Part shown: in pieces, positions 2,218 through 52,249 of the stretch | How the letters are laid out: each line of letters opens with the position of its first letter | Numbering within the stretch: the first letter of the stretch is position 1 | Source: Octopus vulgaris | Lineage: Eukaryota | Assembly (NCBI GenBank): GCA_951406725.2 | Contig: OX597833.1 | Span: 15,686,001-15,750,000 of the forward strand | DNA length: 64,000 nt | Direction: 5' to 3' | Notes under the pieces: model-generated | Database searches by the model: none | Told to the model about the DNA's origin: nothing | The model's input: the letters and a program-made list of their open reading frames with translations, nothing else | Translations under genes and position numbers: made by a program

Positions 2218-3060
2218 AGGCAGCTAAGTAGTAAAATTGTTAGAACATCGGACAAAGTTCTAAGTAGCAATCATTCCGATTATTTACGTTCTGGGTTCAA
2301 ATTTCGCCGAGGTCGAGGTTTGCCTTTCCTTGCTTCGATGTCGATATAATAAGTATCAGTTAAGGCGACGAGCTGGCAGAAACGTTAGCACGCCGGGCGA
2401 AATGCGTAGTCGTATTTCGACTGCCGTTACGTTCTGAGTTCAAATTCTGCCGAGGTCGACTTTGCCTTTCATCCTTTCGGGATCGATAAATTAAGTACCA
2501 GTTATGCACTTGGGTTGATGTATCGACTTAATCCGTTTGTCTGTCCTTGTTTGTCTCCTCTGTGTTTAGCCCCTTCTGGGTAGTAAAGAAATAAGTATTT
2601 CGTCTGTCTTTACGTTCTGTGTTCAAATTCCGCCGAGGTCGACTTTGCCTTTCATCCTTTCGGTGTCGATAAATTAAGTACCAGTTAAGCACTGGGGTCG
2701 ATATAATCAACTTAATCCGTTTGTCTGTCCTTGTTTGTCCTCTCCGTGTTTAGCCCCTTGTGGGTAGTAAAGAAATAGGTATTGCGTCTGTCTTTACGTT
2801 CTGTGTTCAAATTCCGCCGAGGTCGACTTTGCCTTTCATCCTTTCGGGGTCGATTAAATAAGTACCAGTTACGCACTGGGGTCGATATAATCGACTCAAT
2901 CCCTTTGTCTGTCGTTATATGTCGCCTCTGTGTGTAGCCCCTTGAGGGTAGTAAAGAAATAGATATAATAAATATCAGTTGAATACTGAGATCGGTCTAT
3001 TTCTTTACCGAAAATCCCCTAAAGTTGCTGGTTTTGTGCAAAAAATTTAAAATCAATAAT
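2218..3060 (+). mobile_element. Old SINE A interrupted by a young SINE A trimer (2364-2961)
   Basis: Degenerate A head 2218-2361 resumes at 2981; insert is one head plus three ~183-bp units; TSD gatataataa(g/a)tatcagtt at 2343-2361 and 2962-2980. Confidence 0.85.
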
Positions 3061-4911: not shown

Positions 4912-5312
4912 CTAGCAGTATCGCCCGGCGCTGCTCGGGTTTGTAAGGGAAATAACTATATAAGCATTTTTAGAGAGTTATAGCCAAAAAATAGCAAAAA
5001 ATGCACTAAAAATGGAAAACAAATGATGGTAAATTTTTTTAAAATCGTTGACTCATCGTAGACATTTTTAGAGAGTTACTTCCCTTATATAATAGCGAAA
5101 AAATGCATTAAAATGGAAAAAATTATGGTAAATTATTTTTTTAAATCGTAGACTCATCGTAATACCAAGACGCGCGCTAATACCCAGAAGGGCTCGATAT
5201 GAATCACGACTATAAGATACCCGGTTTTGGTTAAATGCACCGCAAATGTGGGAGTAGTTAGGAATCTAAATCGTAGGAGACAGACACACAACTTCACTTT
5301 TATATATAAAGA
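4912..5312 (-). mobile_element. Non-autonomous Helitron-like element
   Basis: On minus strand a|TCtttatatataaaag ... cccgagcagcgccgggcgatactgCTAG|t; A|T insertion site, no TSD; internal ~95-bp duplication as in 59289-59685. Confidence 0.85.
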
Positions 5313-14454: not shown

Positions 14455-15192
14455 ATCTTCATCATCATCATCGTTTAACGTCCGCTTTCCATGCTAGCAT
14501 GGATTGGACGGTTCAACTTGGGTCTGGGGAGCCCGAAGGCTGCACCAGGCCAGTCAGATCTGGCAGTGTTTCTACAGCTGGATGCCCTTCCTAACGCCAA
14601 CCACTCTGAGAGTGTAGTGGGTGATTTTATGTGCTACCGACACAGGTGCCAGACGAGGCTGGCAAACGGCCACGCTCGGATGGTGTTTTTTATGTGCCAC
14701 CGACACAGGTGCCAGACGAGGCTGGCGAACGGCCACGCTTGGATGGTGTTTTTTATGTGCCACCGACACAGGTGCCAGACGAGGCTGGCGAACGGCCACG
14801 CTTGGATGGTGTTTTTTATGTGCCACCGACACAGGTGCCAGACGAGGCTGGCGAACGGCCACGATCGGATGGTGTTTGTTACGTGCCCACAGCACGGAGG
14901 CCAGTCGATGCGGTACTGGCTACGGCCACGTTCGGATGGTTTTCTTATGTGCCACCGGCACTGGTACCACAAAGATACAAATTCCATTGATGCTCATCTA
15001 TTTTGATTGGGTTTGATTTTCACTTGCCTCAACAGGTCTTCACAAGTGTCCCAAGAAGGAAGGTATGCACAGGTGGACTGACTACGTCCCAGGTAGGGGC
15101 CACGGGTTATGGCCTCACTAGTCTTGCCGGGTCTTCTCACGCACAGCATACTTCCATAGGTCTCGGTCTCTAGTCATTTCCTTGGTGAGACC
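14455..15192 (-). mobile_element. 5'-truncated RTE-clade LINE: ORF C-terminus, 3' UTR and (GAT)n tail
   Basis: 15192-15118 translates GLTKEMTRDRDLWKYAVREKTRQD*; RTE-associated motif ggttggcgttaggaagggcatcc; (GAT)n tail near 14459-14472. Confidence 0.75.
14628..14950. repeat. 63-bp minisatellite, 4 near-perfect copies plus degenerate copy, in LINE 3' UTR
   Basis: cacaggtgcc recurs at 14641, 14704, 14767 and 14830. Confidence 0.95.
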
Positions 15193-16767: not shown

Positions 16768-17136
16768 ATACGATGTTTGTACAACTATTTACGCCTAGAA
16801 CTATTTTAGAAAATACTTAAATAATATATGATAAATTGTCTGTGTTTTATTTTGATAAAATAGAGAAGAAACCTTTACACAGTTTAAATAACTGACACAT
16901 TGATAACAGGCCTTTTGTTGTCTTTTGTTTATAGTATAAGTGATGTTATTGCTAGTTTTTTTTTAAATATTTATTTTGACGTTGATTAATTGGTAATATA
17001 TAGCGTACAAAAAATATATAAGAAAATTAAATAGACTTTCGCTTTGTTTTAGAGTATTTCAGCAACGTAACAGTCCACGTATTTGTTTTAACAGTAGTAC
17101 TTTATCATTATCCTTCTAAAATTCTCATGTATATAA

Positions 17137-17900
17137 GGCGGCGAGCTGGCAGAAACGTTAGCACGCCGGGCGAAATGCTTAGCGGTATTTCATCCGCCGT
17201 TACGTTCTGAGTTCAAATTCCACCGAGGTCGACTTTACCTTTCATCCTTTCGGGGTCGATAAATTAAGTACCAGTAACGCACTGGGGTCGATATAATCGA
17301 CTTAATCCGTTTGTCTATCCTTGTTTGTCCTCTCTGTGTTTAGCCCCTTGTGGGTAGTAAAGAAATAGGTATTTCGTCTGCCATTACGTTCTGAGTTCAA
17401 ATTCCGCCGAGGTCGACTTTGCCTTTCATCCTTTCGGGGTCGATAAATTAAGTACCAGTTACACACTGGAGTCGATGTAATCGACTTAATGCTTTTGTAT
17501 GTCCATGTTTGTTCCCCTCTATGTTTAGCCCCTTGTGGGTAATAAAGAAATAGGTATTTCATCTGCCGTTACGTTCTGAATTCAAATTCCGCCGAGGTCG
17601 ACTTTGCCTTTCATACATTCGGGGTCGATTAAATAAATACCAGTTACGCACTGGGGTCGATGTAATCGACTTAATCCGTTTGTCTGTCCTTGTTTGTCCT
17701 CTCTGTGTTTAGCCCCTTGTAGGTGGTAAAGAAATAGGTATTTCGTCTGTCTTTACGTTCTGAGTTCAAATTCCGCCGAGGTCGACTTTACCATTCATCC
17801 TTTCGGGTTCAATAAATTAAGCACCAGTTTTGTACTGGCATCGGTCTAATCGACTGACCTCCTCCCTCAAAATTTCGGGTCTTGAGCCTAGATTAGAAAT
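17137..17900 (+). mobile_element. SINE A tetramer; last unit has old-type tail
   Basis: One head plus four ~183-bp units; imperfect TSD aaaatt(c/t)tca(t/c)gtata. Confidence 0.9.
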
Positions 17901-18599
17901 GAAAATTTTCACGTATACACATAAGCCGCTCACACATGCACGCATACAAACGGTAACACAATGTACATGGCATGGTTCTGAGTATTAATTCCTGAACTAG
18001 TTATGCATTTTAACGTTGGTCTTTAACAATATTAGGAAAATTTTAGAGGAATGTAAAAGTTAATTTTCTTTCAAAAATAATCATTACGTTTGATATTTGC
18101 TTCAACACCCTTAATTAACGCTTTGATAGTCATCTCTGATTTAATTAGGAAAACCAACACTGATTTAGAAGAAGATTTAATTTTTCAAGTGTAATTTTGG
18201 TTTTATTGCACTGTGTATTCATCTCGTATCCTAAAAAATATCGAAAGAGCAAACATTTATAACTTCACTAAAGATTCTATTTTAAGTGCCAAGTATTTTT
18301 CTTTTAAATGTATCATTTACTACTTTTTATCTCTTCACATCGTATTCCCAACACGTCTCAAAAGTCCTTTCATTGAAACGTAATGAAACATTATTTGTTC
18401 TCGAAATGCTTTCGAGAATTCTCAGTGTTTTCTTTCTGCCAATTCAGCACTTTTTCTTTCATTCTCTCTAGCGACGTAATGAAAATTTCGTCTCAAAAAT
18501 AATTGTAATAACTGATCGCTTTTAATTTCAGTAAAGGTTCTATTTTAAAATGTCTAATACTTTTCTTTCAAACGTAAAATGACATCAGATTGGTTCCAA

Positions 18600-18830
18600 G
18601 GCGGCGAGCTGGCAGAAACGTTAGCACACCGGGCGAAATGCTTAGCCGTATTACGTCTGCCGTTACGTTCTGAGTTCAAATTCAGCCGAAGTCGACTTTG
18701 CCTTTCATCCTTTCGGGGTCGATAAATTAAGTACCAGCTACGCACTGGGGTCGATGTAATCGACTTAATCCGTTTGTCTGTCCTAGTTTGTCCCCTCTAC
18801 GTTTAGCCCCTTGTGGGTAAGAAAGAAACA
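18600..18830 (+). mobile_element. SINE A monomer, young
   Basis: Full head and tail; imperfect TSD atca(g/t)attggtt(c/t)caa. Confidence 0.9.
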
Positions 18831-27092: not shown

Positions 27093-27920
27093 GTCAATAT
27101 TCAGTTTTATTTCGAGTTTTCCTGCCATTAGATTTCATTGGAATTTCAGCAATATAAATAGAGTATTGTTGTATGTTGTATATGTGCAGATTGGTATATT
27201 TTGTTTTATATATATATTCTCCTGCATATAGTAACATGTCTAGACATGCTCATATATATTTAAATGATAAACTTCTGGAAAGCTTTACAGATTTTTACAG
27301 TTCCAGTGATGGCTTGGATCTGTAGTCATCGAATCAGTTTTGCCCATTCTACTTTGGTTTTCAGAAGTCTAATTTTTCACGATTGGTATTTAGGTAGTAT
27401 TTAGGTATATAAGGCGGCGAGCTGGCAGAATCGTTAGCACGCCGGTCGAAATGCTTAGTGGTATTTCGTCTGCCGCTGCATTTTGAGTTCAAATTCCGCC
27501 GAGGTCGACTTTGCCTTTCACACTTTCGGGGTCGATTAAATAAGTACCAGTTACGCACTGGGGTCGATGTAATTGACTTAATCCGTTTGTCTGTCCTTGT
27601 TTGTCCTCTCTGTGTTTAGCCCCTTGTGGGTAGCAAGGAAATAGGTATTTCGTCTGCCTTTACATTTTGAGTTCAAATTCCGCCGAGGTCGACTTTGCCT
27701 TTCATCCTTCCGGGATCGATTAAATAAGTACCAGTTACGCAGTGGAGTCGATATAATCGACTTAATCTGTTTGTCTGTCCTTGTTTTTCCCCTCTGTGTG
27801 TAGCCCCTTCTGCGCAGTAAAGAAATATATATTTAGGTAGTGTTTTACGTATCCCAGTGATCCAACATTTACAAGTATAACCCTGAACTTGTAATCAGGA
27901 TAGAGCAATAACAGATTTCT
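27093..27920 (-). mobile_element. 3' end of RLE-type non-LTR retrotransposon (R4/Dong/NeSL-like), split by SINE A dimer
   Basis: RNLLLLYPDYKFRVILVNVGSLGYVKHYL / NTNREKLDF..LQIQAITGTVKICKAFQKFII*; aataaa near the 3' end; (TATG)n on both flanks. Confidence 0.65.
27413..27826 (+). mobile_element. SINE A dimer
   Basis: Head plus two units; TSD tatttaggtagt. Confidence 0.9.
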
Positions 27921-28349: not shown

Positions 28350-29482
28350 CAGTAATCCCCCCCACCATATCGCGGTTGGCCTATTGCGCACTCAGTACAT
28401 CGCGGTTCACTTATCACGTACTCAGTACATCGCAGATTTTTCTGGCTAATATATATCAATTTATATCGCGCACTCCTCGGTATATCGCGGGTTTCTGCGG
28501 CCGATAATTATTTATATTTTTTAGACTTTAAATATTTCTGTGTTAAAATATACATTTTCACGCCTAAAAATTAATATGATAATAAATAAAAGTAGACTAT
28601 AGTACTGTACTGTATAATACATTAATTAAGAAATATATTAACAGAAAATACGTACAAAGAATCGCAAATACTGTATGGAAAACGAAGCTCGGTAGGCGAG
28701 TGTGTGGCATTGTTTTGCATTTATGATAAAATAAATATATTCAAATCATTAAAAAATATATATATACAATACAGTAATGTTTCTTATTTTTTTATTGCCC
28801 ACAAGGGGCTAAACATAGAAGGGACAATCAAGGACAGACAAATGGGTTTAAGTCGATTATATCGACCCCAGTTTGTAACTGGTACTTAATTTATCGACCC
28901 TGAAAGGATGAAAGGCAAAGTCGATCTCGGCGGAATTTGAACTCAGAATGTAAAGACAGAGGAAATACCCATTTCTTTACTACCCACAAAGGGCTAAACA
29001 CAGAGGAGACAAATAAGGACAGACAAATGGATTAAGTCGATTATATCGACCCTAGTGCGTAACTGGTACCTATTTAATCGACCCCGAAAGGATGAAAGGC
29101 AAAGTTAGCCTCGTGCGGAATTTGAACTCAGAACGTAACGGCAGACGAAATACCTATTTCGTTACTACCAGCAAGGGGCTAAACACAGAGACGATAAACA
29201 AGGACAGACAAACGGATTAAGTCGATTACATCGACCCCAGTGCGTAACTGCTACTTATTTAATCGACCCCGAAAGGATGAAAGGCAAAGTTAGTCTCGTG
29301 CGGAATTTGAACTCAGAACGTAACGGCAGACGAAATACCGCAAAGCATTTCGCTCGGCGTGCTAACGTTTCTACCAGCTTGCTGCCTTCTATATACAATA
29401 CAGTACTGTTTCTACTTCGCGGATTTTCCCCTATCGCGGGAGGTCTTGGTACGTAACAGGTGTAATAATCGACGGGTTACTG
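28350..29482. mobile_element. Tigger/pogo-like non-autonomous DNA transposon
   Basis: TA|cagtaatccc ... gggttactg|TA; subterminal atcgcgg repeats at both ends. Confidence 0.75.
28780..29386 (-). mobile_element. SINE A trimer nested in the Tigger-like element
   Basis: Three units and one head; TSD tatatacaatacagta on both sides. Confidence 0.9.
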
Positions 29483-31947: not shown

Positions 31948-32598
31948 GGGGGCGAGCTGGCAGAATCGTTAGCACGCCGGACGGAATGCTTAGCGGTATT
32001 TCGTCTGTCGCAACGTTCTGTGTTCAAATTCCGCCGAGGTCGACTTTGCCTTTCATCCTTTCGAGGTCTATAAATTAAGTACCAGTTACGCACTGGGGTC
32101 GATGTAATCAACTTAATATCTATGTCTGTCCTTGTTTATCCCCTCTATGTTTAGCCTCTTGTGGGTAGTAAAGAAATAGGTATTTCCTCTGTCGCTACGT
32201 TCTGAGTTCAAATTCCGCCGAGGCCGACTTTGCCTTTCATTCTTTCGGGATCGATAAATTAAGTACCAGTTACGCACTGGGATCGATGCAATCGACTTAA
32301 TCCCTTTGTCCGTCCTTGTTTGTCTCCTCTATGTTTAGCCCCCTGTAGGCAATAAAGAAATAGGTATTTCGTGTGTCGCTACGTTCTGAGTTCAAATTCC
32401 GCCGAGGCCGACTTTGCCTTTCATTCTTTCGGGGTCGATAAATAAAGTACCAGTTTCGCACTTTGCCTTTCATCCTTTCGGGGGTCGATAAATTAAGTAC
32501 CAGTTACGCACTGGGGTCGATATAATCGACTTAATCCCTTTGTCTGTCCTTGTTTGTCCCTTCTATGTTTAGCCCCTTGTGGGTAGTAAAAAAAAAAT
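31948..32598 (+). mobile_element. SINE A multimer (3-4 units, one with internal slip)
   Basis: Junctions aagaaata|ggtatttc; partial repeat restarts at actttgcctttcatcc near 32460. Confidence 0.9.
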
Positions 32599-43737: not shown

Positions 43738-43968
43738 TATTTCTTTATTACCCACAAGGAGACAAACATAAAGGAGACAAACATGGACAGACATAGGTAT
43801 TAAGTCGATTATATCGACCCCAGTGCTTAACTGGTACTTAATTTATCGACCCCGAAAGGATGAAAGGCAAAGTCGACCTCGGCGGAATTTGAACTCACAA
43901 CGTAACGGCAGCCGAAATACCGCTAAGCATTTCGCCCGATGTGCTAACGATTCTGCCAGCTCGCCGCC
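43738..43968 (-). mobile_element. SINE A monomer
   Basis: TSD ttatctgactatgataccta on both sides. Confidence 0.92.
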
Positions 43969-45070
43969 TTATCTGACTATGATACCTAATGAATGAAAGA
44001 AACTAAGGGAAACGTAGGAAATTTTGATTGTAAATGTCTACTAAGAGTATCGCGAAATTCCCCATTTGTATTCTGTGCGTTTGCCACTGCAGGAAACTAG
44101 AACTAAAACGGCGACATTTCAATCTCAAGATAGAGCTAATCTCATCTTCATTAACCTAGTGAATATAGTACAGGAAAGAACGTCAGTTTGCTGATAAATG
44201 TGTTCGTAACGGGTAGACTAGCTCCGTGCGCTTTTCCTGATTTCCAGACTAGAAAACCCTGAAGCTTTGACCCTCTTTATCCGCTAAGTCGTGTTTCTGA
44301 CAAATCAACCATTTCTATACCATAACCCTTCTCTCTCATAAAATTAGTTACACCCTTGAACGTTTGGACTTTACAAGAGATATAGATTGATTTCTATATG
44401 TTTTCGTTTTGTAAACTTCGTCAATGGTTCCTCAGAATCGTTTTCCACTCGTATTGACTTGATTGAACGATTTGTATCCCACCGTTTCTCTAGACGTTCC
44501 CGGAGTGTGTTAGTTGTTGCAATCCCGAGGTAGAATTGCCTGGACATCTGAGAAGGATTTTTGGCTTGGTGCTACATACCTACATCCCCACAGCCATGCC
44601 ATTCAAATCTCCATTGTTCAGGCTTACATCTAACAGCTTCGAGTCTCTCAAACGTGCCCAATTCGCAAATTAGTATTCGCCATCGTGCCCTTGAATTTTT
44701 AGCATCTTGTTAAATGATTTCGCCTCAGATTTAGATTCCCATTGCCTTGGCCCTCATAGCCATAGCATGGAGGATCAAAAGAGATATGATATTTGGAGTA
44801 CCATGCCTGTTTAACATACAGATGGGAACAATGTTTATTTAAATATGTTCTTTATTCAACTTGCAACAACATCTTCATAAGTTACTGAACTCCGTTTTTA
44901 CATCCAATTGCTCTAACTACTCGTCCACTGCACCCTGGTATATGCTGACGGTTGACTGTGAAATCACTCTATCACAACTGAACGGTATATTAACATATGC
45001 ATACAGGCATATGCACACACACATATACACATATACATATACACATACATACATTTATGCATGCATACGT

Positions 45071-46079: not shown

Positions 46080-47892
46080 GCTACGTTGAGTATATTGACT
46101 CCAGTGCTTAACTGGTGCTACGTTGAGTATATTGACTCCAGTGCTTAACTGGTGCTACGTTGAATATATTCACTCCAGTGCTTAACTGGTGCTACGTTGA
46201 GTATATTGACTCCAGTGCTTAACTGGTGCTACGTTGAATATATTAACTCCAGTGCTTAACTGGTGCTACGTTGAGTATATTAACTCCAGTGCTTAACTGG
46301 TGCTACGTTGAGTATATTGACTCCAGTGCTTAACTGGTACTACGTTGAGTATATTGACTCCAGTGCTTAACTGGTGCTACGTTGAGTATATTAACTCCAG
46401 TGCTTAACTGGTGCTACGTTGAGTATATTGACTCCAGTGCTTAACTGGTGCTACGTTGAGTATATTGACTCCAGTGCTTAACTGGTACTACGTTGAGTAT
46501 ATTGACTCCAGTGCTTAACTGGTGCTACGTTGAGTATATTAACTCCAGTGCTTAACTGGTGCTACGTTGAGTATATTAACTCCAGTGCTTAACTGGTGCT
46601 ACGTTGAGTATATTGACTCCAGTGCTTAACTGGTGCTACGTTGAGTATATTGACTCCAGTGCTTAACTGGTGCTACGTTGAGTATATTGACTCCAGTGCT
46701 TAACTGGTGCTACGTTGAGTATATTGACTCCAGTGCTTAACTGGTGCTACGTTGAATATATTCACTCCAGTGCTTAACTGGTGCTACGTTGAGTATATTG
46801 ACTCCAGTGCTTAACTGGTACTACGTTGAGTATATTGACTCCAGTGCTTAACTGGTGCTACGTTGAATATATTGACTCCAGTGCTTAACTGGTGCTACGT
46901 TGAGTATATTGACTCCAGTGCTTAACTGGTGCTACGTTGAATATATTGACTCCAGTGCTTAACTGGTGCTACGTTGAGTATATTGACTCCAGTGCTTAAC
47001 TGGTGCTACGTTGAATATATTCACTCCAGTGCTTAACTGGTGCTACGTTGAGTATATTGACTCCAGTGCTTAACTGGTGCTACGTTGAGTATATTAACTC
47101 CAGTGCTTAACTGGTGCTACGTTGAGTATATTGACTCCAGTGCTTAACTGGTGCTACGTTGAGTATATTGACTCCAGTGCTTAACTGGTGCTACGTTGAG
47201 TATATTGACTCCAGTGCTTAACTGGTGCTACGTTGAATATATTGACTCCAGTGCTTAACTGGTGCTACGTTGAGTATATTGACTCCAGTGCTTAACTGGT
47301 GCTACGTTGAGTATATTGACTCCAGTGCTTAACTGGTGTTACGTTGAATATATTCACTCCAGTGCTTAACTGGTGCTACGTTGAGTATATTGACTCCAGT
47401 GCTTAACTGGTGCTACGTTGAGTATATTAACTCCAGTGCTTAACTGGTGCTACGTTGAGTATATTGACTCCAGTACTTAACTGGTGCTACGTTGAGTATA
47501 TTGACTCCAGTGCTTAACTGGTGCTACGTTGAATATATTGACTCCAGTGCTTAACTGGTGCTACGTTGAGTATATTGACTCCAGTGCTTAACTGGTGCTA
47601 CGTTGAATATATTGACTCCAGTGCTTAACTGGTGCTACGTTGAGTATATTGACTCCAGTGCTTAACTGGTGCTACGTTGAGTATATTCACTCCAGTGCTT
47701 AACTGGTGCTACGTTGAATATATTCACTCCAGTGCTTAACTGGTGCTACGTTGAGTATATTAACTCCAGTGCTTAACTGGTGCTACGTTGAGTATATTAA
47801 CTCCAGTGCTTAACTGGTGCTACGTTGAGTATATTGACTCCAGTACTTAACTGGTGCTACGTTGAGTATACTGACTCCAGTGCTTAACTGGT
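46080..47892. repeat. 37-bp minisatellite, 49 tandem copies, SINE A-derived
   Basis: Unit gctacgttgagtatattgactccagtgcttaactggt; span 1813 bp = 49 x 37; no spacers. Confidence 0.97.
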
Positions 47893-48000
47893 GCTTATAT
47901 AAGCGAACTCAAAGCAGACAAAATGAAATCAACTTCGGCGGTATTTGAACTCAGAACGCAATCAATCGGAAGAAACACTACAAATCATTTTTTTCACCCA
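47893..48000 (-). mobile_element. Old SINE A head continuing from the last minisatellite unit
   Basis: tcaacttcggcggtatttgaactcagaacg matches reverse-complement A (tcgacctcggcggaatttgaactcagaacg). Confidence 0.75.
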
Positions 48001-50600: not shown

Positions 50601-51157
50601 CTCAGTGCTATTTCATTAACCCTTGAAATGTTTATATACTCTTTGAGGCTTATCAACCACAGTTGATAGATCACGTGGCACTGCATATGCATTTCTAGCT
50701 TCCATTGTGTAATTTCCACTGATGTGAAAACAATATGTATGTTCGATTTTGGTAAAACTTAGGGTATTTTGAGGTGTTCTAAATTTCCCAGTATTAGGTT
50801 GTTAGCTTTGCTTAAATTTACTCTTGGATGTGAAAGGTACGTTTTAATCTAGATGCAATGCATCTGTTTCAAATTAGATATTCTATGATTTCCCAACGCT
50901 ATTTTCATCATAAACGTTAGATATTGGAAAGTAAGAATTGCCACAAAGAATTTATTTGCATTTATCCATTCTATCCCCTATGCTATTGAAATTGCGTACG
51001 TCATAAGAATCTACTATGCGCTTTTTTTTTTACCTTCTACCACCGGCGTATTTCAATGTCATTCAAGTACTTCGTACTTATGAATAAGTGATGGTTTATT
51101 TAATTGATTTTAGGTGATCAAGAACAGTCCATTTTAATTATACGAATTTTAATATAC

Positions 51158-52037
51158 ATTTCTTTACTACCCACAAGGGGATAAGCATAGAGGGGGCAAA
51201 CAAGGACAGACAAACGGATCAAGTAGATTACATCGACCCCAGTGCGAAACTGGTACTTTATTTATCGACCCCGAAAGGATGAAAAGCAAAGTCAACCTCG
51301 GCTAATTTGAACTCAGAACGTAGCGGCAGACGAAATACAGCTACGCATTTCGCCCGGCTTTCAAACGTTTCTTATTTTTTTATTGCCCACAAGGGGCTAA
51401 ACATAGAGGGGACAAACAAGGACAGACAAAGAGATTAAGTCGATTACATCGGCCCCAGTGCGAAACTGGTACTTTATTTATCGACCCGGAAAGGATGAAA
51501 AGCAAAGTCAACCTCGGAGGAATTTGAACTCAGAACGTAGTGGCAGACGAAATACGGCTACGCATTTCACCCGGCTTGCAAACGTTTCTCATTTCTTTAC
51601 TACCCACAAGAGGCTAAACACAGAGGGGACAAACAAGGACAAACAAAGGGATTAAGTCGATTACATCGACCCGAGAGCGTAACTGGTACTTTATTTATCG
51701 ACTCCGAAAGGATGAAAATCAAAGTCAACCTCGGCGGAATTTGAACTCAGAACGTAGCGGCAGACGAAATACGGCTACGCATTACGCCCGGCTTGCTAAC
51801 GTTTCTCATTTCTTTACTACCCACAAGGGGCTAAACATAGAAGGGACAAACAAGGACAGACAAACGGATTAAGTCGATTACATCGACCCTGTGCATAACT
51901 GGTACATTACTTATCGACCCCCGAAAGGATGAAAGGCAAAGTCAACCTCGGCGGAATTTGAACTCAGAACGTAGCGGCAGACGAAATACTGCTAAGCATT
52001 TCGCCCGGCTTGCTAACGTTTCTGGCAGCTCGCCGCC
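51158..52037 (-). mobile_element. SINE A tetramer with 217-bp period
   Basis: ctcagaacgtag at 51312, 51529, 51746 and 51963; TSD acgaattttaatata. Confidence 0.92.
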
Positions 52038-52249
52038 AACGAATTTTAATATAATTATCTTGAGTCACTTACGCTCGTCATTCATTCCCTCAAATTTGTC
52101 CTGTTGTTACATTTCACGCATATTGCTATTTCACTGTTGCTGTACTTCTCAAGATATTGCTCTCTGACGAAGCTGGGCGCAGTACGACGTTCTCTTATCT
52201 CCTCGTCGAAACCGTTAATGAGAAAATAAGGAGAAAATAAACAAACGAA

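Follow-up and report, generated by a model that had tools for sequence, protein, structure and literature searches.

Several described systems resemble the SINE arrays analysed here, as far as the consulted parts of their reports go. In crocodilians, SINEU-3 prefers a site in another repeat, its tandem copies were read as sequential insertions, and it is mobilised by a Tx1-type LINE, Tx1-Mar (PMC4494074). Similar to SINEU-3, the octopus family examined here (SINE-A, or family A) shows a preferred site in a repeat and forms tandem copies, the site lying in SINE heads. Whereas SINEU-3 targets Mariner and its tandem copies sandwich a target-site duplication (TSD), family A appears to use the head of its own or a sister SINE and its arrays are mostly seamless; and whereas Tx1-Mar shares the target of SINEU-3, no LINE with the same target was found here in the searches made. 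Arrays of the layout TSD1-(SINE)n-TSD1 in the clam Scapharca broughtonii likewise have one full head, head-truncated repeats and a single outer TSD (PMC11481361). Their inner units also lack part of the tail, whereas tails are whole in the octopus arrays; 3% of the clam copies lie in arrays as compared to 26 of 49 elements here; and for the clam unequal recombination was proposed, whereas nested founders are found here. The SINE satellites of squamates are also tandem repeats derived from part of a SINE and expanded by unequal recombination, and repeated insertion at a locus is mentioned, but the consulted parts describe no fixed targeted join such as the one seen here (PMC10702118).

Two further systems bear on the mechanism. 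Insertion of R2Ol is enhanced when a read-through 3' end pairs with the target, and upstream homology favours full-length insertion (PMC6530143); an RNA that runs into its target and pairs with the nicked primer is also part of the model proposed below. R2 is, however, an autonomous element with an rDNA (28S) target that was tested in vivo, whereas the octopus case is read from sequence. Non-LTR retrozymes resemble the arrays in having tandem units of 150-450 bp, occurring as dimers to multimers and sometimes with a TSD, but they are defined by a type I hammerhead and a circular RNA (PMC7229834), whereas no type I hammerhead was found in the array units and a tRNA-like head is present. Array layout and sequential targeted insertion are already known from the parts of these reports consulted; targeting of a SINE's own head is absent from the literature searched (mostly outside subscription journals), in which no description of the present arrays was found either. 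The consulted parts of an octopus repeat annotation (PMC13282606) do not mention the arrays; its supplement and library may cover them.

The window, i.e. the whole 64-kb stretch of Octopus vulgaris DNA that was analysed, includes six SINE arrays and two monomers of family A. Base numbering throughout follows the family-A majority sequence (233 nt), and the family is compared with a sister family B, which has bases 1-168 in common with A and a different tail.

2343 to 2361, plus strand: left TSD of the first array, 19 nt with one mismatch to 2962-2980
2362 to 2593, plus strand: unit 1 of the first array, with tRNA-like head, body and family-A tail
2594 to 2777, plus strand: unit 2 of the first array, restarting at head base 50
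2778 to 2961, plus strand: unit 3 of the first array, restarting at head base 50
2962 to 2980, plus strand: right TSD of the first array
17135 to 17903, plus strand: array A-A-A-B of three family-A units and a last B unit, 16-nt TSD with two mismatches
18598 to 18830, plus strand: family-A monomer with a decayed 19-nt TSD
27411 to 27827, plus strand: dimer A-A with an imprecise TSD
28785 to 29388, minus strand: array A-A-A, 24-nt TSD with one mismatch, beginning AGAAAC
31948 to 32597, plus strand: array with two complete units, followed by a third that carries a 50-nt duplication within it
43738 to 43970, minus strand: family-A monomer with a perfect 20-nt TSD beginning TAGGTAT
51157 to 52039, minus strand: four-unit array restarting at head base 17, 217-bp period, perfect 15-nt TSD

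The first array (2362-2961) consists of a head and three units with a period of 184, bracketed by the 19-nt TSD, and its neighbouring units differ at 16 and 16 sites. A preliminary description had reported five arrays, at 2364, 17137, 27413, 28780 and 31948, each composed of a head and repeated units that differ from each other, and all five are real and correctly placed. TSDs had been claimed to bracket whole arrays; such repeats were recovered at 2362, 17135 and 28785, whereas the one at 27411 is imprecise and at 31948, where the last part of the array is broken, only a decayed TSD-like match is present. The sixth array, at 51157-52039, had been missed, as had the fact that unit 4 of the 17137 array carries the other tail and belongs to family B. 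That the arrays were inserted as single events was a conclusion of that description and is not visible in the sequence. Directly before the first array lies an older SINE fragment (2284-2362, bases ca. 66-143, 81%) which overlaps the left TSD.

We take the window repeat to resemble octopus tRNA-SINEs, which were reportedly studied by Ohshima and Okada in 1994. The head of unit 1 contains motifs which, judged by eye against the consensus, are A-box- and B-box-like; ARAGORN predicted no tRNA gene in the head and Rfam gave no match to it. In terms of the SINEBase definitions of tRNA-derived SINEs, as far as consulted, the family is short (233 nt), interspersed and of high copy number, with a TSD around 17 of 38 clean A monomers and a LINE-derived 3' region (bases 190-231).

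In the predicted fold of the head, base 50 is the first base after the four-nucleotide loop (46-49) of a hairpin, and the tail sequence GAAAT is able to pair with ATTTC across the join. The restart at this hairpin loop that had been noted in the window recurs in 182 of 206 joins following an A tail, base 17 being used in 14, and the reported complementarity of the tail to TATTTC is real. The hairpin is not supported as the cause of the join, however, the base-17 restart lying outside it, nor is the pairing a requirement, as GAAA is also present in a LINE tail and the base-17 join occurs without it. The whole family-A monomer folds no better than shuffled sequences (z −0.51).

Genome-wide (2.8 Gb), the exact base-50 join gave 34,752 matches and the reversed control none, so the join is not due to chance. 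With a free spacer 30,100 matches were obtained, the same two spacer bases occurring in 96 of the first 100 matches listed; the exact base-17 join gave 3,622. The comparison set consisted of the window and 140 stretches of 10 kb, of which 60 were not pattern-chosen (40 scattered, 20 beside the window) and 80 came from the start of contig C1, nearly all of them centred on junction matches, which favours well-kept arrays. Added later were 20 stretches at base-17 joins and 116 searched loci, used for the tests of 5'-shortening, nested variants and subtypes. In 664 kb that were not pattern-chosen, elements containing A had one, two, three and four units in 23, 12, 8 and 6 cases, so that 26 of 49 are arrays; scaling from these 664 kb puts the genome total roughly at 10^5 arrays. 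Elements were filtered for complete heads and tails, for standard joins and for lying away from the end of a stretch, which left 151 of 367 (38 A monomers, 39 B monomers, 34 arrays ending in A and 40 ending in B), the clean-array filter requiring A in all places but the last.

A DNA-level origin of the join is indicated by nested copies. A head broken near base 65 and followed by a new head was matched exactly 86 times (control 0). Thirty of these loci were fetched, of which 24 are distinct; in 19 a resident head (bases 1 to ca. 65) is followed by a full A copy and a restart at base 50, and five have another structure. At nine loci (L141, 143, 144, 148, 149, 153, 154, 155 and 163) a variant of the resident is found in both copies of the segment from base 50 to ca. 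65 and is absent from the inserted head. This segment is therefore, on the pattern of variants, a true target-site duplication, and the heads of genomic SINEs thus serve family A as insertion sites, at base 50. A single nested case at base 17 was found (L020), and at L144 a dimer lies inside one nested TSD. Nested copies form only ca. 1-3% of elements (four of 112 flagged, two of them clear), so they do not directly explain the seamless majority. A published rule for target-specific SINEs and LINEs, taken from the consulted part of its report, is that over 20% of insertions flank one repeat (PMC4494074); here 26 of 49 elements are arrays, the direct nested proof covering ca. 1-3%.

The reading we favour, with a probability of about 0.6, is that family A inserts into older SINE heads at base 50 or 17, thereby founding most arrays, and that middle units are gained by unequal exchange. 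It rests on four observations: the nested TSDs, last units of the age of resident copies, middle units out of phase with the join, and targets that match the bases following the tail. In mechanistic terms, copies of family A would land in the heads of older genomic SINEs, and the arrays so founded would then gain middle units by unequal exchange of DNA. An L1/Tx1-type LINE with a similar 3' end may supply the enzymes and nick two nucleotides before TAT; the A RNA would extend beyond its tail by a few bases (AGAA in the GCAAT subtype, otherwise GGUAU), and pairing of this run-on with the nicked primer would fix the join.

The age of the last units bears on this. Among the 74 clean arrays, the B unit is in the last place in 40 of the 40 that hold one; of 21 wider elements with B before the end, most, as far as checked, are separate copies side by side. 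Genome-wide, a B tail joined to base 50 was found three times as compared to 30,100 for the A tail. B1-type last units are 0.077 diverged (225/2926), close to free B1 copies (0.080, p 0.73), whereas the first A unit of the same arrays is 0.043 diverged (p 6e-8), the last unit being about twice as diverged. In A..B arrays the last unit is more diverged than the first in 33 and less in 3 of 40; arrays of A only show no such gradient (last above first in 9, below in 19, n=34), and the older GCAAT subtype is enriched in the last place (12/34 vs 10/74, p 0.019). B marks begin 13-15 nt after the join at the frequency seen in monomers (63T in 30/40 vs 31/39), which indicates that the change from A to B was made at the join each time. 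The heads of A..B arrays are A-type (45G in 9/40 and 50C in 10/40, vs 1/39 and 0/39 in B), and in seamless A..B arrays bases 50-65 of unit 1 are A-type as well.

The same observations were weighed against template switching during one insertion, in which the reverse transcriptase would begin on any A or B RNA and, on reaching bases 50-56 (or 17-21), use a few bases of homology to jump onto an A RNA at its run-on 3' end, nested copies being a side product of this homology. This fits A-type heads, B only in the last place and unrelated units, as well as mixed junctions within one array (L067, L062, L079), TSDs that are not old, and arrays shortened inside their TSD (L113, L135, L182, L236); that switching does happen is shown by odd 5' head fragments without a restart at L142, L145 and L158. 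Old copies would, however, be needed as templates, since B1 last units match genomic B1 in age and are not as young as A; TSD-flanked 5' ends show no pile-up at base 50 (0 of 7 starts at 50-66), and nested copies already demonstrate a DNA route to the same join. We consider template switching unlikely as a general account. The template jumping put forward in the preliminary description may apply to part of the seamless arrays, whereas for nested copies a route at the DNA level is apparent.

How units within one array are related was examined by comparing their variants. The two units of AA dimers are 0.107 apart as compared to 0.103 for units of different loci, and the nearest neighbour lies in the own array in only 2 of 38 cases. 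Because distances within dimers are as great as those between loci, dimers are, by sequence distance, two independent copies joined, and would derive neither from a circle nor from a duplicated monomer or one master. Middle units of longer arrays behave differently: their nearest neighbour is in the own array in 29 of 48 cases, and pairs at most 3% apart make up 23 of 138 comparisons within arrays vs 3 of 11,952 between arrays. Of the variants at bases 51-70, middle units share 5 with the last unit (among 6+14) and none with the first (among 10+6), whereas of the tail variants they share 16 with the first unit (among 74+82) and hardly any, namely 1, with the last (among 35+65). Judged from these variants, middle units are chimeras of a last-unit 5' part and a first-unit tail, as is characteristic of unequal exchange. 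This offset results when units 1 and 2 exchange unequally, and a circle closed at the join would have copied one unit whole. At L116, L072, L075 and L080, pairs of units differ at 0-1 positions while other units of the array are 10-20 sites apart, which points to duplication long after insertion; other arrays, including those at 2364 and 17137, hold no such near-identical pair. Chimeric and near-identical middle units are what is expected of SINE-derived satellites and TSD-(SINE)n-TSD arrays that expand by unequal exchange.

These relationships do not support the view that arrays as a rule are single insertions, given the near-identical middle units inside old arrays. Identity of units within a locus had been named at the outset as a sign of DNA duplication that would refute it; near-identity is found for middle units (the 23 of 138 pairs), to which this refutation applies, and not for dimers. 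Neither do units cluster by position across loci (61/156 vs 56.8 by shuffling, p 0.32), which makes a single multimeric master unlikely. Rolling-circle copying of a 184-nt circular RNA, which had been suggested by analogy with retrozymes, would explain the fixed unit length and the near-identical units of some arrays (L127, L080). It is scarcely tenable, however, in view of the distance between dimer units, a repeated segment that is out of phase with the join, the combination of A and B units and of two junction types in one array, and the lack of a ribozyme signature: the 17137 array gave no Rfam match at E<=10, and a check for CTGANG found none on either strand. Window positions 1-33000 gave only microsatellite-driven Rfam matches, none in an array, and HDV-like and hammerhead layouts were rejected by eye and by a motif check. 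The mechanism first proposed is thus mostly replaced, and the preliminary description is partly supported: the join is recurrent and precise, and dimer units have different sources.

The landing base depends on the tail subtype. GCAAT tails occur in 43 of 48 joins at base 17 and GT tails in 243 of 271 at base 50. Of 25 GT-type ends at unique sites, 11 have a TSD that starts with GG after the A tail (background 3%); positions 3-5 of the TSD are T, A and T in 58, 58 and 51 of 72 cases (NNTAT), and the TSD start TAGGTAT of the monomer at 43738..43970 matches the presumed run-on of the RNA into base 50. The only TAT of the A majority sequence is at base 52; common variants create others, which are not used. 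Both restarts, at bases 17 and 50, follow GC.

Bases 190-231 of family A show 76-84% identity with the 3' terminus of an abundant RVT_1/zf-RVT element, whose nearest solved relatives are L1 ORF2p. This tail-sharing LINE abuts or ends in (TATC)n and has its last 42 nt in common with the SINE-A tail; in 23 of 25 cases NNTAT comes after its 3' end, and this repeat could be either target or tail. This L1/Tx1-type LINE is very abundant (37,669 first-look candidates, many with open frames of 1149 aa, e.g. L096:1-2333, at many loci). Neither base 50 nor base 17 was found to be occupied by a LINE, nine matches of one search being judged by the listed match alone, and 30 loci with neither usual flank at base 50 had mostly mutated heads and no evident LINE. 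Poly-A before base 50 (43 matches, 15 loci read) proved to be just the A tail with an A run, and a foreign-looking tail at base 50 (two matches) was traced to a rearranged locus that is present in duplicate and lacks a useful ORF. On C1, the places L061:5397-5620 and L172, though distant, have in common a long and nearly identical stretch in which a headless array and an inverted piece of a head occur.

Two further explanations concern the precision of the join. Heads might be cut as RNA in loops after C (bases 16 and 49), ligated to the 3' end of an A RNA and then copied; U6-L1 chimeras, said to be made by RtcB, would be the model. Both restarts following GC, the position of base 50 after a predicted loop and the precision of the joins are in keeping with this, but the GGTAT and AGAA starts of unique genomic targets according to tail subtype and the resident age of last units are left unexplained, and we regard it as very improbable. 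Alternatively, the join arose once or twice and was spread by multimeric masters, with recombination swapping the last units. The near-invariant spacer (96 of the first 100 matches listed) and the absence of 50C from base-50 joins (0/34 and 0/40) speak for such an origin. Against it stand the lack of clustering by position, the presence of all tail subtypes at the join, B marks that set in no more than 15 nt after the join, a distance too short if crossovers were distributed over 118 nt, and nested copies that remake the join; it is largely refuted and improbable.

For the favoured reading, insertion into older heads, the step from nested to seamless arrays needs explanation. By one route, the head of the cDNA would replace the resident head in place and leave the old outer TSD; by the other, a nested copy would be re-copied from its inner head as one RNA, which is feasible because neither majority sequence, A or B, has a T4 run. 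Both routes would yield more run-on RNA, so that targeting would feed itself. Simple annealing of the TSD overhang was rejected as the main route: heads are A-type and units 1 and 2 do not share their 51-70 variants (1/19 in AA, 2/28 in AB), so that full head replacement or re-copying is needed.

Growth in place is suggested by the fact that no TSD-flanked array is shortened past base 50 (0 vs 52 full; monomers 4 vs 22 full, or 2 vs 22 under the strict rule; p 0.01 for arrays vs monomers with the loose TSD rule, 0.10 with the strict one) and that no common source is seen among 780 pairs of A..B arrays, none of which have rare variants in common in each of the two units; many sources would be needed if re-copying is the route. 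Insertion of a whole RNA is suggested by arrays shortened at bases 16, 35, 42 and 49 inside their TSD, by the nested dimer at L144, by the correlation between the divergence loads of first and last units in A..B arrays (rho 0.62), as predicted for one insertion date, and by array TSDs showing no greater age than those of monomers (8/189 vs 11/139 mismatches). Some arrays, namely the 5'-shortened ones inside a TSD, may thus have inserted whole. TSD age was discarded as a discriminator between growth in place and re-copying, for it gave no separation.

Tentatively, and as something less likely than not, the in-place route can be extended to a homing SINE: RNA running on into its own head sequence would prime wherever a genomic copy of A or B is nicked in its head, and the cDNA head would take the place of the resident one without a second cut, seamlessly adding a unit inside the old TSD. 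About one third of A insertions would follow this course, the two subtypes would serve the two sites, and ca. 100,000 arrays would result. If so, the SINE would build its own landing pads.

Sequences of other animals were searched for the A-B dimer at L083. In four of four runs of organisms A and B, contigs extend from the left flank into the head and end at 5257, swamped by other copies, so that the unit number is not readable; four runs of organisms C-F gave no orthologous L083 contig among the matches listed. In contigs of organism F, loose ends ahead of base 17 are most often an A-like tail (409 contigs; L083:4790-6270). Junction-spanning depth, also in contigs only, differs among organisms C-F. 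The two joins may differ in use between species, as judged from contigs only.

The arrays offer a testable route from dispersed to tandem repeats, with ca. 10^5 loci within a single genome. They are also a natural example of insertion sites that would be chosen by a short RNA run-on of a few bases and not by the LINE endonuclease alone. A TSD around an array does not prove a single insertion, the units within an array are of different ages, and nesting and local duplication skew both the copy numbers and the age landscapes of SINEs in genomes of this kind.

Several minor observations concern other tandem structures. Whole new SINE copies often lie directly after a B tail (L072:9113-8903, L077, L090, L125, L081), forming a second kind of head-to-tail clustering, and at L132 (near 1604) and L241 SINE units are joined to their own inverted copies as palindromes. 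At L165-L169 (G000:C5, ca. 87,874,700-87,875,400), L146/147 and L158/159, the pair of neighbouring heads left by a nested insertion has expanded into a tandem run of bases 3-70, with about 20 copies on C5. In the window, a 63-bp tandem repeat (14625-14969, 5.4 copies) showed no relation to family A by the searches made. A minisatellite at 46080-47895 (37 bp, 49 copies) resembles, in reverse complement, bases 136-160 of the SINE body and is adjoined by a SINE fragment at 47858-47961; it is likely a SINE-derived satellite.
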